Assembly: GCA_017416685.1 (NCBI GenBank)
Contig: JAFQBN010000012.1
Location: forward strand, 59,950 to 123,949
Reading direction: 5' to 3'
DNA length: 64,000 nt
Origin: Oscillospiraceae bacterium
GTDB taxonomy: Bacteria > Bacillota > Clostridia > Oscillospirales > Oscillospiraceae
The position numbers and the translations under genes were made by a program. Below are positions 4,173 to 39,784 of this stretch, in pieces. Below the pieces are notes generated by a model. It searched no databases and had not been told where the DNA came from. It was given only the letters and a program-made list of their open reading frames with translations. Every line of letters starts with the position of its first letter. Positions within the stretch are counted from its first letter, which is position 1.

Positions 4173-6493
4173 TTAAATACCGCGTCCATGAAGTGGCAAA
4201 GGACTTCAAACTCAACTCCAAGGACATCGCCGAGATCATGACCAAGTATACCGAAACTCCCAAAAACCATATGCAGGTGCTGGGCGATTTCGAACTGGCC
4301 GTCATTTTCGAGGCCATCACCCAGCGCAACCAGATCGAGTCCATCGAGAGCATCTTTGCCGACGTGTACCACGAGCCCAAGGCGGCCGAACCCGCTCCCG
4401 CTGAGGAGAAGCCCGCCGAAAAGCAGGCCGATGCTCCCGCCAAGGCCGCGCAGTCCAAAGCTGAGGTCAAGGCCGAACCCAAGCAGGAGCAGAAACTTCA
4501 GCAGCCCACCACCCGCGTACCCGAAAAAAAGGTCGTCGACACCCGCAAGGGCGGCAACGTCAACCTCGACAAGTACGACGAGCGTCTGGAGAACTTCACC
4601 GACCAGCGTCATCAGGACCGGGGCGGTAAGCAGAAGATCCAGAAGGGCGGCAAGCAGGGCCGTCAGCCCCAGTTCGGCAACAAGCGCAAGCAGGAGGAGG
4701 CCGAAAAGCTCCGCCGTCTGCAGCTTGAGATCGCCAAAAAGACTCCCCTCACCGTCAAGATCCCCGACGAGATTGCCGTGGGCGAGCTGGCCAGCCGCAT
4801 GAAGAAGACCGGTGCCGAGGTGGTCAAGTGCCTGATGATGAACGGCGTTATGGCCTCCCTGAGCGAGATCATCGACTTCGACACCGCCGCCTTCGTAGCC
4901 GAGGAACTGGGCTGCAAGGTAGAGAAAGAAGTCATCGTCACCATCGAGGAGAAGCTCATCGACGTGTCCGAGGATAAGGACGAGGATCTGCAGGACCGCG
5001 CCCCCGTGGTAGTTGTCATGGGTCACGTGGACCACGGCAAGACCTCCCTGCTGGACTACATCCGCAACGCCAACGTCGTTTCCGGCGAGGCCGGCGGTAT
5101 CACCCAGCACATCGGCGCCTATCAGGTAGAGGTGAACGGCAAGCCCATCACCTTCCTGGACACCCCCGGTCACGAGGCCTTTACCGCCATGCGCGCCCGC
5201 GGTGCCATGATCACCGACGTAGCCATTCTGGTGGTGGCCGCCGACGACGGCATCATGCCCCAGACCGTGGAGTCTATCAACCACGCCAAGGCCGCCGAGA
5301 TCCCCCTGATCGTCGCCGTCAACAAGATGGATAAGCCCACCGCCAACCCCGACCGCATCATGCAGCAGCTGACCGAGTACGAGCTAGTGCCCGAGGAGTG
5401 GGGCGGCGACACCATTATCTGCCCCATCTCTGCCAAGACCGGCATGGGCATCGACAACCTGCTGGACATGGTCACCCTGACCGCCGAGATGCGCGAGCTG
5501 AAGGCCAACCCCAACCGCACCGCTCACGGTGCGGTCATCGAGGCCCGTCTGGACAAGGGCCGCGGCCCTGTGGCCACCCTGTTGGTGCAGAACGGCACCC
5601 TGAAACAGGGCGACGTCATCATCGCCGGCACGGCTGTGGGCCGCGTGCGCGCCATGACCGATGCCAAGGGCAACAAGCTGACCCAGGCCGGCCCCTCCGT
5701 CCCCGTGGAGATCATCGGCATGAGCGAAGTGCCCGGTGCCGGTGACGACTTCCACGCCGTTGCCGATGAGCGCATGGCCCGCGAACTGGTGGAGCAGCGC
5801 AAGCACGAGCAGAAGGCCAACGTGGGCAGCAATGTGGGCAAGGTCACGCTGGAGGACCTGTTCAGCCAGATCCAGGCCGGCGACATGAAGAACCTGAACA
5901 TCATCGTCAAGGCCGATGTGCAGGGTTCTGCCGAGGCGGTCAAGGCCTCTTTGGAGAAGCTGACCAACGAGGAAGTCCGCGTGCGTGTCATCCACAGCGG
6001 CGTGGGCGCCATCAACGAGTCCGACGTCACTCTGGCCGCCACCGCCGGCGCCATCATCGTTGGCTTCAACGTCCGTCCCGACTCCAACGCCAAGGAAACT
6101 TCCGTCCGTCTGGATGTGGATATGCGTATGTACCGCGTGATTTACGATGCCATCAACGAGATCGAGGCCGCTATGAAGGGCATGCTGGCTCCCAAGTTCC
6201 GCGAAGTGGAGCTGGGCCGCGCCGAGGTGCGCAACGTCTTCCGCATCACCAACGTCGGCATGGTCGCCGGCTGCTACGTGGTGGATGGCAAGATGCAGCG
6301 CAACGCCCAAATGCGTCTGCTGCGCGACAACGTGGTCATCTACGACGGAGCCATCGCCTCCCTGCAGCGCTTCAAGGACAGCGTGAAGGAAGTGGCCTCC
6401 GGCTACGAATGTGGTATCACTTTTGAGAAGTTCCAGGATATTAAGGAAGGCGACATTATTGAGGCCTTCATTATGGAGCAAATCGAGGTATAA
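4169..6493 (+). CDS. infB: Translation initiation factor IF-2
   Basis: [34 protein letters not shown] motifs. Confidence 0.98.
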
Positions 6494-35471: not shown

Positions 35472-36302
35472 TCAGACCGCCACAGGAATCTTCGCATCCA
35501 GGGCATGAGCCTGATAACCCTCCAGTTTCACGCTGGCGGGAGTAAAATCGTAGAAATCGGTCACAGAAGTGTCCAGACTGAATTTTGGTGCATCAAAGGG
35601 AGCGCGGGCGATGAGTTCCTCCACCACGGGGATGTGGCGGTCGTAGATGTGGGCATCGGCGATGACGTGAACGAACTCGCCGGCCTCCAGGCCGGACACC
35701 TGCGCCAGCATGTGGGTCAGGGCGGCGTACTGCATCACGTTCCAGCCGTTGGCGGTGAGCATATCCTGAGAGCGCTGATTCAAAATGGCGTTCAGGGTGT
35801 TGCCGCTGACGTTGAAGGTCATGGAGTAGGCGCAGGGGTACAGAGCCATCTCGCTCAGATCGTGATGGTTGTAGAGGTTGGTCATGATGCGCCGGGAGGT
35901 GGGGTTGTTCTTCAGGTCGAACAGCACCCGGTCCACCTGATCCATCTCGCCCTCGGGGTAGCGGTGCTTGACACCCAGCTGATAGCCGTAGGCCTTGCCG
36001 ATGGTGCCATTCTCGTCGGCCCATGCATCCCACACGTGGCTGTTGAGTTCGTGGATATCGTTGGACTTCTTCTGCCAGATCCACAAAAGCTCGTCCACCG
36101 CGGACTTGAGAAACTGCTTGCGCACGGTGATGATGGGAAACTCCTCTTTCAGGTTATAGCGGTTGACCACACCGAACAGCTTGACGGTGTGGGCGGGGGT
36201 GCCGTCCTCCCACTTGGGGCGCACGGGACGGTCCGTGTCCCAGACGCCCTTGGACAGGATATCCCTGCAGTTTTGAATAAAGACCTGATCGGCGTAGCTC
36301 AT
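35472..36302 (-). CDS. thyA: Thymidylate synthase ThyA
   Basis: VWDAWAD, IGKAYGYQ, ALYPCAY, NQRSQDM, DAHIYDRH. Confidence 0.95.
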   Translation of the reverse strand: MSYADQVFIQNCRDILSKGVWDTDRPVRPKWEDGTPAHTVKLFGVVNRYNLKEEFPIITVRKQFLKSAVDELLWIWQKKSNDIHELNSHVWDAWADENGTIGKAYGYQLGVKHRYPEGEMDQVDRVLFDLKNNPTSRRIMTNLYNHHDLSEMALYPCAYSMTFNVSGNTLNAILNQRSQDMLTANGWNVMQYAALTHMLAQVSGLEAGEFVHVIADAHIYDRHIPVVEELIARAPFDAPKFSLDTSVTDFYDFTPASVKLEGYQAHALDAKIPVAV

Positions 36303-36392
36303 ACCCAACCGCTCCTTTGTGTCATGTATTGTGTTAATCATACACTTAAACAGCCGGAAACGCAACAGAAAAGTTGCGCTTCCGGCTGTGGC

Positions 36393-36641
36393 TTATTCCC
36401 CTTTGTACTTTTTCCGGGTGGCAAGACCCCCTCGGATGTGCCGCTGGGCCTTGTTTTCGTCCAGCACCTGCTTGACCTGCAGGTACAGCGGACGGTTAAA
36501 GGTGGGCAGACGGTCCTGAATATCCTTGTGAACGGTGGATTTGCTGATGCCGAACTTCCGGGCCGCACCACGGACCGTGGTGTTATTCTCTATGATGTAC
36601 TGGGCCAGACCGCAGGCCCGTTCCTCGATATTCCCCTTCAC
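36393..36641 (-). CDS. spoIIID: Sporulation transcriptional regulator SpoIIID
   Basis: IEER....A.YIIENNTTVR.AA.KFGISKSTVHKD..RL....NKAQRHIRGGLAT..KY; GTG start. Confidence 0.95.
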   Translation of the reverse strand: MKGNIEERACGLAQYIIENNTTVRGAARKFGISKSTVHKDIQDRLPTFNRPLYLQVKQVLDENKAQRHIRGGLATRKKYKGE

Positions 36642-36746
36642 TTGGCAACACGCTCCATTTCTGCGTTACTGCCACAGTTATATGAGAAAATCGCGAACAA
36701 TAGAACGCAAAAAGGGGACGGCGAGAGCCGTCCCCTTTCGGTTTAC

Positions 36747-36881
36747 TTACTCCTGCACGGAAAACTGGTCCTTACCGACGCCGCACAGTTCGCAGGTGAA
36801 GTCCTCGGGCAGATCCTCCCACTTCACGCCGGTCTCGGCCTCGTCATAGACCCAGCCGCACACATCACAAACATATTTCAT
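36747..36881 (-). CDS. Rubredoxin (44 aa; below the ORF-track length cutoff)
   Basis: MKYVCDVCGWVYDEAETGVKWEDLPEDFTCELCGVGKDQFSVQE; two CxxCG motifs; AAAAGGAGG SD. Confidence 0.93.
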   Translation of the reverse strand: MKYVCDVCGWVYDEAETGVKWEDLPEDFTCELCGVGKDQFSVQE

Positions 36882-36935
36882 AACAAATTCCTCCTTTTGT
36901 GTTGTAAACAGTTTATCCTGTTTGGTTGTATTTAA

Positions 36936-37736
36936 TCAGGGGCGCATGCCCAAGCCACCCTCCAGGGTGATGGTCTCGCCGGTCATATACTTAAAATCAG
37001 GGTGCGCCAGCTGGACACAGACCCGACCGATATGCTCCTCGGGGTCACCGAAAAAGCCCATGGGCGGGGTGTGGACATTCTTCTCAAAGGCATCGGGATA
37101 GGCCTTCTGGAAGTTCTCCAGCTGAGCCGTCCAGGCCAGGGGGCAGACCACATTGACATTGATACCGTCCTTGCTCCACTCGGTGGCGGCCACACGGGTC
37201 AAACCGCGGATACCTTCCTTAGCGGCGGCGTAGGCGCACTGACCGTAGTTGCCGAACAGACCGGCACCGGAGGCAAAGTTGATGACACTGCCTTTGGCCT
37301 TGGCCAGGTAGGGGTAGCAGGCCTGCATATAGTAGAAGGCCGCATACAGACCGGAATACACCGCCAAGTCAAACTGCTCGGTGGTGTGGTCGGCCAGGGT
37401 CACTCCGGAGGCGGAGGCCTGGGCGTTGTTGATCAGCACGTCAATCCCGCCAAACTCGGCTACCGCTTGCTCCACCACAGCCTTGGCGGTGGCGGCGTTG
37501 TCGTTACCCGCGGCAATATCGCCCTGAACGGGCAGAACCTTCACACCGTACAGACGCTCCAGTTCTTCCTTGGCGTCCTGCAATTTCTGCACATTGCGGC
37601 CGGTGATGACGATGTTGGCGCCCTCCTTGGCGTAGGCGGTGGCAATGCCGTAGCCGATGGAGCCGGCACGGCCGTCAGACAGAACCGCCCGACCGCCGCC
37701 GGTGATGAGAACGGTTTTTCCGGTAAAATAACCCAT
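36936..37736 (-). CDS. SDR oxidoreductase, probable NADP-dependent 12alpha-hydroxysteroid dehydrogenase
   Basis: TGGG..SIGYGIATAYAKEG..GRN..KEELERLYG, NNAQASASG, YSGLYAAFYYM, YAAAK, GETITLEGG.G.RP match my recollection of characterised gut 12alpha-HSDHs. Confidence 0.78.
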   Translation of the reverse strand: MGYFTGKTVLITGGGRAVLSDGRAGSIGYGIATAYAKEGANIVITGRNVQKLQDAKEELERLYGVKVLPVQGDIAAGNDNAATAKAVVEQAVAEFGGIDVLINNAQASASGVTLADHTTEQFDLAVYSGLYAAFYYMQACYPYLAKAKGSVINFASGAGLFGNYGQCAYAAAKEGIRGLTRVAATEWSKDGINVNVVCPLAWTAQLENFQKAYPDAFEKNVHTPPMGFFGDPEEHIGRVCVQLAHPDFKYMTGETITLEGGLGMRP

Positions 37737-37853
37737 TAAAATCCCTCCAAACAGAACCTTTGTATTATATTTTCCTCCACAGCGCTATATATGAGGGCCC
37801 TGGATAAATCCCCCGATAGCGGAGGTCCGCTGTCGGGGGATGTTTGATTTCCC

Positions 37854-38438
37854 TTAGAAGTAACGCTTCAGCAGACCTTCCAGACCCTTGCCGTGGCGAG
37901 CCTCGTCGCGGGCCATCTCGTGGACGGTGTCGTGGATGGCGTCCAGACCGTTTTTCTTGGCGCAGGCGGCCAGGTCGAACTTGCCCTGGGTGGCGCCGTA
38001 CTCGCAGTCCACACGCCACTTCAGGTTATCCTTGGTGGTAGCCTTCATCATAGGCTCCAGATCCTCGCCCAGCAGCTCGGCGAACTTGGCGGCATGCTCG
38101 GCCTCCTCATAAGCGGCCTTCTCCCAGTACAGACCCACCTCGGGATAGCCCTCACGGTGGGCGATGCGGGCCATACACAGGTACATACCGACCTCGGAAC
38201 ACTCGCCGTTGAAGTTGGCCATGAGCTGCTCAAAGATGTACTTCTTGTCCGCCTCGGAGATGTCGGGGTTGTTCTTCACGGTCTTGCCGTACACGCCGTA
38301 CTCATGCTCGGCAGCCAGCTTCATCTCACCTTCCACTTCCTTGAACTTCTCGGCAGGGACCTTGCAAACGGGGCACTGCTCGGGAGCGCTGTCGCCCTCG
38401 TGAACATAACCACAAACAGAACAAACGTACTTTTTCAT
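37854..38438 (-). CDS. Reverse rubrerythrin (N-terminal rubredoxin-like + ferritin-like diiron domain)
   Basis: CSVCGY..CPVC; ECSEVGMY, EEAEHA, EYGA, DEARHG. Confidence 0.92.
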   Translation of the reverse strand: MKKYVCSVCGYVHEGDSAPEQCPVCKVPAEKFKEVEGEMKLAAEHEYGVYGKTVKNNPDISEADKKYIFEQLMANFNGECSEVGMYLCMARIAHREGYPEVGLYWEKAAYEEAEHAAKFAELLGEDLEPMMKATTKDNLKWRVDCEYGATQGKFDLAACAKKNGLDAIHDTVHEMARDEARHGKGLEGLLKRYF

Positions 38439-38473
38439 GATTTTTTCCTCCAATTAAATAATTTATTTTGAAT

Positions 38474-38878
38474 TTATTGTTTGACTTCTTTTTTTATGCA
38501 TTGGTCGCAGGTGCCGAACACCGTCAAATCGTGGTGGTCGGTGCGGAAGCCGTACTGCCTGCACACCTGCTGCTCTACCTGCTCCCCGGCAGCGATATCG
38601 GGAATGTCGATCACGGAATGACAGCAGGTACAGACGAAGTGCGTGTGGTTTTCCGTGTTGGCATCAAACCGTTCGTGTCCGTCCACCACACCCACACTGC
38701 GGATCACACCCTGTTGACGAAAAAGGGTCAGATTGCGATACACCGTACCCAAACTCAGGTCCGGATGCTCCGGCTTGAGCTGCTGGTACAGCCACTCTGC
38801 CGTAGGGTGGCTCTTCGTCATCCGCATGGCTTCAAGAATAGCCTCGCGCTTTTTGCTGTATCGGGTCGTTCGCTCCAT
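38474..38878 (-). CDS. perR: Fur-family repressor, PerR-like
   Basis: SKKREAIL..HPTAE..LSLGTVYRNL..RFD....HTHFVCTCC..GTCDQC; co-oriented with rubrerythrin. Confidence 0.82.
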   Translation of the reverse strand: MERTTRYSKKREAILEAMRMTKSHPTAEWLYQQLKPEHPDLSLGTVYRNLTLFRQQGVIRSVGVVDGHERFDANTENHTHFVCTCCHSVIDIPDIAAGEQVEQQVCRQYGFRTDHHDLTVFGTCDQCIKKEVKQ

Positions 38879-38915
38879 CTCAACCTCCTTTTCCGCAGGG
38901 TTTATTCTCTCGCTT

Positions 38916-38972
38916 AACAGTAATCATTACTGTTTGCAAGATGATAATAGCATACACCTCCGGGTTTGTAAA
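38916..38972 (-). promoter_or_regulatory. perR promoter with perfect 9-1-9 operator
   Basis: TTTACA-17-TATTAT (38972-38944) followed by AACAGTAAT-C-ATTACTGTT (38916-38934). Confidence 0.75.
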
Positions 38973-39044
38973 GAGGTTTTTTCAAAAAAACAAAAAATTT
39001 TTTGAAAACGAAAAAGGACGCCCGCGGGCGTCCTTTTGGTGCGT

Positions 39045-39659
39045 TTATCTGAGTAGATTCATCAGCATCTGGGCGGTCTGCGCGCGGGTGGCAGGATCGG
39101 TCACCCGGTCAAAGGGCATATTGTCCATCAGCCCCACCGCCTGCGCCCAGCCGATGGCGTTGCCCGCCCACTCCGAGTGGGGACCAACCGCGTCGGCATC
39201 GCCGGTCAGAGGCGGGTTGCCCTCGTAGTTCCACAGGATGACAAACACCTGCTCCAGCGTCACGGGGGCATCGGGTTTGAAGATACCGCCGCCGTAGCCG
39301 CTGACGATGTCCCTGCTGCTGGCCCAGGTGACCGCTTTGGTATACCACTGGTCATCAGGCACATCGGAAAAGCCGCTGCTCTGTCCGGCGAGAGCAGGCT
39401 TGCCCTCCTTATTGTAAAGTACCTGTACCACCTGAGCCCGGGTCAGGGTCTCGTCCGGGCCAAAGGAAGTGGCACTAAAGCCGCTCATCAACCCGTGGAC
39501 GATCACCCAATCTACCGCGCCGTGATACCATGCGTTGGCGGGTACGTCTGTCATGGTGGCCGCAGGGCAGTTGTGACTAACAGCAAAGACCGGCAGCACA
39601 AGCATCTGGATCGCTATCAAACCGACCGCAATACAGCGGCGGAGTTGTTTTGTATTCAT
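39045..39659 (-). CDS. Secreted protein made of three SLH domains
   Basis: Signal-like N-terminus; TDVPANAWY..G....FGPDETLTRAQ; FSDVPDDQWY..FKPDAPVTLEQ; SEWA..PATRAQTA. Confidence 0.85.
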   Translation of the reverse strand: MNTKQLRRCIAVGLIAIQMLVLPVFAVSHNCPAATMTDVPANAWYHGAVDWVIVHGLMSGFSATSFGPDETLTRAQVVQVLYNKEGKPALAGQSSGFSDVPDDQWYTKAVTWASSRDIVSGYGGGIFKPDAPVTLEQVFVILWNYEGNPPLTGDADAVGPHSEWAGNAIGWAQAVGLMDNMPFDRVTDPATRAQTAQMLMNLLR

Positions 39660-39784
39660 CTCAGGTATCCTCCCTTTCATAACCGGACTTCGTCTCATTC
39701 TACCATGACACGCAGCCACACGCAAGATAACATATAAAGATATGAAAACGGATGCCCTCTGAAGTGAGGGCATCCGTTGATGCG

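Follow-up and report, generated by a model that had tools for sequence, protein, structure and literature searches.

A 64,000-nucleotide stretch of the genome of a gut Oscillospiraceae bacterium (assembly GCA_017416685.1, contig JAFQBN010000012.1, positions 59,950 to 123,949; hereafter the window, whose own positions are used below) was found to carry on its minus strand a gene for a short-chain dehydrogenase/reductase (SDR) paired with the only rubredoxin gene (rd) of its host, directly 3' of genes for a PerR-like regulator (perR) and a reverse rubrerythrin (rbr). We favor the reading, with a probability of roughly 0.6, that the SDR is an accessory bile-acid 12alpha-hydroxysteroid dehydrogenase (12alpha-HSDH) that forms a unit with the sole rubredoxin behind a resident perR-rbr operon. 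The enzyme would interconvert the 12alpha-hydroxyl group of cholate or deoxycholate and the 12-oxo form with NADP(H) as cofactor. Its gene would have spread horizontally and would now occupy, as a two-gene unit with rd, a variable slot directly 3' of an autoregulated perR-rbr operon. The rubredoxin would be the electron carrier to the reverse rubrerythrin for reduction of H2O2 or O2, as expected from established clostridial reverse rubrerythrin systems. A connection of the dehydrogenase to peroxide defence, if there is one, would go no further than a common NADP(H) pool and a reductase with its gene elsewhere, with no dedicated PerR-controlled pathway. The pairing of the SDR with the sole rubredoxin is real, as is its recurrence beside perR-rbr operons within one clade of the SDR family; no description of either was found in the literature searched.

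The SDR (266 aa; 36936-37736, minus strand; Pfam adh_short_C2 E 4.9e-45, adh_short E 7.2e-38) is very probably a bile-acid 12alpha-HSDH, as had been proposed in an earlier, sequence-only reading of the window. Membership in this family was backed by a gapless match to CDD59475.1 of Eggerthella sp. CAG:298, in which 208 of 266 residues (78%) were identical and the C-terminal substrate region was included. Both proteins are 266 aa long and have in common a Gly-rich segment with a 9-residue insert, a TGRN motif and the Ser/Tyr/Lys set, with Ser156, Tyr169 and Lys173 of the SDR aligning identically as the classical catalytic residues. The basic residue in GRN to which the earlier reading had pointed is present in the translation as Arg47 of 'ITGRN', within a 'VITGRN' motif that is the same in CDD59475.1. 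A basic residue after the second strand in place of Asp is the signature of NADP(H)-type SDRs. The nearest solved structure by sequence was PDB 7wbc (E 7.8e-55, residues 15-261 aligned), titled 'Hydroxysteroid dehydrogenase ... complexed with NAD+'; this protein has V-D-V-D where the window SDR has T-G-R-N after the second strand, a difference consistent with NAD+ for 7wbc and NADP(H) for the window SDR. An AlphaFold model of the SDR built from a 5-row alignment had a pLDDT of 66.6 and matched generic SDR structures (Z ~22). From the sequence comparisons we infer both the bile-acid substrate and the NADP(H) cofactor.

The available text of PMC8096331 names CDD59475.1 among bile-acid 12alpha-HSDH sequences with reference to its characterization, which is credited there and in the available part of PMC7996314 to Mythen et al. 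2018; the latter also counts the paper on this enzyme among those on NADP(H)-specific 12alpha-HSDHs. The title of the primary paper, as cited in that same part of PMC7996314, has the Eggerthella gene clustered with genes for 3alpha- and 3beta-HSDHs, and in this the window SDR differs. In our scan of species-representative genomes, the Eggerthella sp. CAG:298 locus (L043) encoded a product identical to CDD59475.1, and none of rubrerythrin, PerR and rubredoxin turned up within 6 kb of the gene. Relatives of the window SDR are annotated merely as 'SDR family oxidoreductase' in public records; a gene that databases so label can be confidently annotated, adding a member to an enzyme family already known.

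When compared to its counterparts in three congeners (G008, G063 and G068), the SDR was ~90% identical in nucleotide and 99-100% identical in amino-acid sequence. Against G063, 717 of 798 nucleotides were identical and the protein was 100% identical. Thus, 81 nucleotide differences with no amino-acid change point to very strong purifying selection. In the same genomes (loci L105, L106 and L107) protein identity was 88-92% for PerR, 90-97% for ThyA and 99-100% for the SDR. Judged by these comparisons, the constraint on the SDR is unusually strong for an accessory gene.

Upstream of the SDR, the perR-like gene (134 aa; 38474-38878, minus strand) encodes a Fur-family regulator (Pfam FUR E 1.4e-29) whose top NCBIfam model was PerR, at 102.8 bits and thus under the 180-bit cut-off. 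The rbr gene (37854-38441, minus strand) begins 32 nt after the end of perR with an ATG at 38441, a TTG at 38453 being also open. In its product the RUBY_RBDX domain (residues 9-38) precedes the Rubrerythrin domain (residues 75-131) in Pfam, the order of a 'reverse' rubrerythrin. The earlier reading had described perR, reverse rubrerythrin, a hairpin, the SDR and rubredoxin as co-oriented, and all five were found where it had placed them. A sigma-70-type promoter of perR (TTTACA-17-TATTAT with TG before the -10 hexamer; 38944-38972, minus strand) was the sole promoter-like site detected by a scan of 36300-39200. Between its -10 hexamer and the perR start lies the palindrome CAGTAAT-N-ATTACTG (38918-38932), of which no other perfect copy occurs in the window or elsewhere in the host genome (1.86 Mb, 98.9% complete; G000). 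The same box, with 0-2 mismatches, was found 5' of perR in relatives and unrelated hosts (L105, L106, L107, L009, L011, L018 and L166). From its position at the perR promoter and its conservation, the palindrome is very probably the operator through which PerR controls its own perR-rbr operon. One further box-like site in the genome (C24:17390, 2 mismatches) was rejected, as it overlaps the 3' end of an open reading frame (glucosamine-6-phosphate-deaminase-like, named by eye from its translation) and not a promoter.

The rubredoxin gene (44 aa; 36747-36881, minus strand) was assigned to PF00301 at 47.4 bits (cut-off 23); its product is ~8 residues shorter than the profile and has two CxxC pairs (C5/C8 and C30/C33). 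By tblastn and Pfam it was the only PF00301 match in the genome. From the SDR stop to the rubredoxin ATG there are 54 bp (36882-36935), which the earlier reading had taken to be free of a terminator. This spacer indeed proved unstructured, folding no better than shuffled sequences (-7.2 kcal/mol, z -0.81). Because the adjacency of the two genes is also kept in G008, G063, G068 and G070, the SDR and rubredoxin genes almost certainly make up one transcription unit. The unit would end at an intrinsic terminator (36711-36738, minus strand; 12-pair stem, -29.4 kcal/mol, z -5.74), which the scan listed on the plus strand and in which the stem is followed on the minus strand by UUUUUGCGUU; spoIIID, thyA and folA come after it.

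Whether this unit belongs to the PerR-controlled operon was judged from the 117-bp spacer between rbr and the SDR (folding -45.2 kcal/mol, z -3.49). The spacer holds a G+C-rich hairpin (37808-37841, minus strand; 15 pairs, 10 of them G-C), whose tail on the gene strand is UUUAUCC, and a TATAAT hexamer (37764-37769, minus strand), which was read from the sequence 27 nt 5' of the SDR start and was not called by the promoter scan of 36300-39200. The hairpin is possibly a leaky terminator and the hexamer possibly a weak promoter of the SDR's own. In G008, G063 and G068 the corresponding spacer is 204-591 bp long and carries a canonical hairpin with a T-run, remnants of a PepSY gene and a CTTGCG-17-TATAAT promoter ~35 nt before the SDR ribosome-binding site; promoter-like sites 5' of the SDR were likewise read by eye in 12 of 14 other loci of its clade. 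A search upstream of the SDR, in the window and in L105-L107, gave no PerR box with up to 3 mismatches. Box-like matches 22 nt into the SDR coding region of L005, L006, L009, L011 and L067 were discarded as the conserved KTVLITGG codons. Thus, the earlier placement of the SDR within one peroxide-defence cluster holds in the sense of physical adjacency and of an almost certain unit shared with rubredoxin, and is not supported as membership of the SDR in the PerR unit, given the lack of a PerR box at the SDR, the intervening hairpin, and the canonical terminator and own promoter in G008, G063 and G068, its three closest relatives.

Gut metatranscriptome contigs matched the stretch in small shares only (0.05-0.08), and at 88% likeness thousands of short contigs from many organisms cover it. 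Among the matches listed, no piece from any RNA run bridged the rbr-SDR or SDR-rd junction; the single bridging piece (37546-37909) belongs to a run of unspecified kind. Inverted repeats were noted just 3' of the -10 element of the SDR promoter in L006 (~1565-1590, AGAATGTAAGC/GCTTACATTCT) and in L005 (~5935-5965, AAAAAGTAA-N10-TTACTTTTT), and these may be operators of another regulator of the SDR.

The accessory status of the SDR was apparent from its distribution in the genus. By DNA search of 61 congeneric genomes, G000 included, the SDR was matched in at least five (G000, G008, G063, G068 and G070) among the matches listed, with 122 matches beyond these; by protein search it was found in 1 of 24 other congeners. 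In SDR-less G020, G056 and G071 the order is perR-rbr-rd with a different rubredoxin, and in SDR-less G067, whose rubredoxin shares 84% identity with the window rubredoxin, it is perR-rbr-Hrb-rd. The rubrerythrins of these four genomes are 93-96% identical to that of the window, which argues that perR-rbr is resident and that the slot behind it, where the SDR is found, is variable. The slot is extended in G070, where the order is perR-rbr-PepSY-ZnADH-MBL-SDR-rd; here a Zn-dependent alcohol dehydrogenase (ZnADH; L103:4799-5863, plus strand) and a 550-aa metallo-beta-lactamase-fold (MBL) protein lie between rbr and the SDR, and with the former the SDR slot would hold two NAD(P)-linked dehydrogenases. 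Among congeners the SDR evolves ~eight times slower than rubrerythrin, so an ancient common arrangement followed by losses is a possible explanation of the recurrence of the neighborhood in other lineages, described below.

The G067 protein encoded between rbr and rd (L099:5314-6048, plus strand; 244 aa) joins a Flavin_Reduct domain to two rubredoxin-like domains. For this fusion and the similar one in L065, described below, we use the name Hrb ('high-molecular-weight rubredoxin'). The G067 protein is predicted to be an electron-input module from NAD(P)H to an iron centre. Hrb-type genes thus lie in the rbr-rd slot in G067 and directly 5' of the SDR in L065, much like the window SDR in its own place; an Hrb is a flavoprotein able to pass NAD(P)H electrons to an Fe(Cys)4 site, which the SDR cannot do.

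Beyond the genus, we examined the neighborhoods of the best 80 of more than 580 genome loci of the SDR family (74-91% identity to the window SDR). Rubrerythrin was present within the fetched flank in 6 of these 80 and absent nearby in the other 74. In L006, L009, L011 and L018, the rubrerythrin gene or a rubredoxin gene next after it stops 104-214 bp short of the SDR; rubrerythrin is 1.65 kb from the SDR in L010 and 4.9 kb in L005. An Hrb-like flavin reductase-rubredoxin gene lies 139 bp 5' of the SDR in L065, a metagenome-assembled genome (MAG) of the Coriobacteriia, and a Fur-family gene without rubrerythrin lies ~1.8 kb 3' of the SDR in L062 and L063. When genomes were drawn class-wide, the SDR family was found in 31 of 398 others, and rubrerythrin or PerR was within ~4 kb of the SDR in none of the 31 loci, 6 of which end at contig ends; one locus had a rubredoxin 2.6 kb off on the opposite strand.

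A tree of the SDR (85 rows) placed all rubrerythrin-linked rows in one 16-row clade with an SH-aLRT support of 99, in which 10 rows are linked and 6 are not; at least five changes of the linked state are needed. The hosts of this clade have G+C contents of 39-44% and 53-60%, and SDR codon usage is adapted to each host. Four arrangements were recognized: ftsH-DUF1294-perR-rbr-SDR-rd-spoIIID; perR-rbr-rd-SDR between pfk and tkt; perR-rbr-SDR-ArAE next to a histidine kinase-response regulator (HK-RR) pair; and perR-rbr-antitoxin followed at a distance by the SDR. In a second lineage, 10 of 41 genomes of the genus had an SDR match. One genome of this lineage, G118, keeps pfk-perR-rbr-rd-tkt with a DUF6044 gene in place of the SDR; the rubrerythrins of G118 and SDR-bearing L009 are 98% identical. 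Judged by tree and gene order, an apparently widely transferred SDR thus adjoins rubrerythrin operons that are resident in their hosts, and does so in two or more bacterial families. The sequence-only reading would have been undone had the SDR proved unlinked from these genes in relatives; this was the case in most of the family, and in one clade it was not. Near a contig start in L006, a 347-aa frame (L006:59-1102, plus strand) combines a partial Flavin_Reduct, two rubredoxin-like and a rubrerythrin domain, and may be a natural fusion of Hrb and reverse rubrerythrin or two genes read through by the open reading frame caller.

We also surveyed the genome for proteins that could connect the SDR to the rubrerythrin. 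Three rubrerythrin-domain genes are present, and the three rubrerythrin matches and one rubredoxin match lie at three sites. Lacking any flavin or metal centre, the SDR cannot itself reduce rubredoxin, so that any coupling would depend on NADPH as a shared pool and on a reductase from another locus. No NAD(P)H:rubredoxin oxidoreductase (NROR) gene was found within the cluster, nor was PF18267 (Rubredoxin_C), the canonical NROR marker, found in the genome. The genome has 13 Pyr_redox_2 matches, seven of which were given NCBIfam names (dihydrolipoyl dehydrogenase, thioredoxin reductase, glutamate synthase and others, several of them below cut-offs), and none of the seven was named as NROR. A CoA-disulfide-reductase/NADH-oxidase-like gene is interrupted by a contig end, and the flavin-reductase domains that were found lie away from the cluster. 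A separate gene (G000:C37:1155-2945, L112) encodes a 596-aa flavodiiron-type protein with ODP/metallo-beta-lactamase, flavodoxin, Flavin_Reduct and C-terminal rubredoxin-like domains, a composition that would suffice on its own for NAD(P)H-dependent reduction of O2.

The cluster most resembles the PerR-reverse rubrerythrin-rubredoxin-NROR system of Clostridium acetobutylicum and Clostridioides difficile. In the available text of PMC7482061, reverse rubrerythrins of this system reduce H2O2 and O2 with electrons that pass from NAD(P)H through NROR and rubredoxin. Like it, the window has co-oriented perR-like, reverse rubrerythrin and rubredoxin genes and a palindromic box at the perR-like gene's own promoter. 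Unlike it, the window cluster has no NADH:rubredoxin oxidoreductase, the genome lacks a Rubredoxin_C match, and a dehydrogenase without a known role in that system splits rubrerythrin from rubredoxin.

We next weighed other explanations of this neighborhood. That the SDR is purely a passenger, landed by chance in a recombination-prone intergenic slot 3' of a strongly terminated operon, with its recurrence reflecting the spread of one ancestral arrangement, is possible though not probable. Consistent with such an origin, the rbr-SDR spacer varies from 117 to 591 bp and holds PepSY remnants, different accessory genes occupy the slot in congeners, and the linked loci form one clade, for which a single origin followed by losses would be possible. 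A Cas12f1-like TNB (TnpB-type) fragment in L047, a Lachnospiraceae MAG (L047:8-277, plus strand), lies ~360 bp 5' of the SDR and hints at insertion sequence-mediated mobility. By contrast, the tree requires at least five changes of the linked state, gene order varies among lineages, and the flanking perR-rbr genes track the host and not the SDR. The chance of such adjacency is also small, at ~1% per insertion by our own estimate (three rubrerythrins and one rubredoxin at three sites in 1.86 Mb).

The converse explanation, that the 12alpha-HSDH of this clade was recruited to rubrerythrin and rubredoxin so that oxidation of the abundant 12alpha-hydroxy bile acids would yield NADPH for a flavoprotein, rubredoxin and reverse rubrerythrin in turn, appears unlikely; so does its reverse form, in which O2 or H2O2 would be an electron sink that pulls deoxycholate to the less toxic 12-oxo form. 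Such coupling widens the suggestion of the earlier reading that NADPH from bile acids may serve peroxide or oxygen detoxification. Oxidation of an alcohol by NADP+ is uphill at neutral pH. Reduction of O2 or H2O2 would be a sink strong enough to draw it forward, which makes the coupling chemically sensible, its occurrence being hypothetical. It draws support from the confinement of all rubrerythrin-linked loci to the single well-supported clade (10 of 16 rows), from the spread of four arrangements (rbr-SDR-rd, rbr-rd-SDR, rbr-SDR-ArAE and rbr-toxin-antitoxin-SDR) over hosts of 39-60% G+C, and from the residence of perR-rbr in at least two lineages (rubrerythrins 93-96% and 98% identical in SDR-less congeners). 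Added to this are the predicted transcript that joins the genome's only rubredoxin to the SDR, the Hrb-like NAD(P)H flavin reductase-rubredoxin that takes the same slot in G067, the Zn-dependent alcohol dehydrogenase added in G070, and the pairing of Hrb with the SDR in another phylum (L065). The available part of PMC7996314 further proposes bile-acid oxidation as a source of reductant in Eggerthella lenta and describes 12-oxo forms as less toxic.

Set against dedicated coupling are the lack of a PerR box at the SDR, the own promoter and terminator in most loci, the absence of a rubredoxin reductase from the cluster, and the failure to find PF18267 in the 98.9%-complete genome, with the flavin-reductase domains encoded elsewhere. 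Rubrerythrin is moreover absent nearby in 6 of 16 clade rows, 31 of 31 class-sample loci and 74 of 80 best loci. The variable slots also carry unrelated genes (PepSY, MBL, DUF6044 and a toxin-antitoxin gene). The SDR evolves so slowly that 90% identity is by itself no proof of separate transfers, and the recurrences may not be independent. We regard as improbable the broader proposal of a bile-acid:H2O2/O2 oxidoreductase chain, in which the clade's NADP-dependent 12alpha-HSDHs would work alongside PerR-reverse rubrerythrin-rubredoxin operons that are resident in several gut clostridial lineages and, in one case, with an Hrb in the Coriobacteriia. If such a chain did operate, host bile acids would be an oxygen-insensitive electron donor for oxidative-stress defence, and oxygen exposure would drive deoxycholate to 12-oxolithocholate.

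Why gut anaerobes oxidize bile acids is still debated. A functional neighborhood would tie this oxidation to oxygen and peroxide tolerance and would offer a testable cause for redox-dependent shifts of the bile-acid pool. If the neighborhood is not functional, the locus remains useful as a clearly resolved instance in which an accessory HSDH gene has settled 3' of a conserved stress operon, in a slot of variable content. The evidence leaves a selected functional link, at about the low likelihood given to coupling above, and settlement in a permissive slot undistinguished, and neither the expression data nor the structure model added anything decisive.

The favored reading, an accessory 12alpha-HSDH and rubredoxin unit behind a resident operon, is itself challenged by several observations. 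The window hairpin has no U-run and the -35 element of the SDR promoter is poor, so that in the window transcription could run on from the PerR-controlled promoter into the SDR, which would then be co-regulated. Recurrence in four host contexts with differing gene orders, with the rubrerythrin operons resident in at least two of them, exceeds the expectation for a random slot and thus speaks for some selected link; the Hrb-like gene close to the SDR in L065 is a further such observation. As for the enzyme, 22% of SDR residues differ from the characterized CDD59475.1, which was the characterized protein used for comparison, the clostridial reference enzymes EDS06338.1, EEG75500.1, EEA85268.1 and ERJ00208.1 being left out.

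That the SDR acts in this host on something other than bile acids (a different steroid, or else some small alcohol or ketone), with a misleading family name, is very unlikely: no NCBIfam model scored above cut-off for the SDR, with FabG and butanediol-dehydrogenase models on top, and many close relatives are ruminant-gut MAGs by title, but the gapless identity to CDD59475.1 extends through the C-terminal substrate region, and a phmmer search of 1.84 billion cluster representatives outlined a tight family, with full-length matches at 72-73% identity and the next at 52% and below. The available text of PMC7996314 holds that SDR substrate specificity is hard to predict by homology; by contrast, activity in the family is reported down to ~41% identity in that of PMC9540589, which covers the cloning, as a 12alpha-HSDH, of an Acinetobacter enzyme that shares only 41% identity with the 12alpha-HSDH of Clostridium.

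On the 5' side of the locus, an SLH-domain gene (39045-39773, minus strand) lies between DUF1294 and perR in the window. In G008, G063 and G068 no SLH gene is present there and DUF1294 is directly 5' of perR, and sequences resembling the window SLH gene are present on other contigs; the SLH-domain gene looks like a local insertion.

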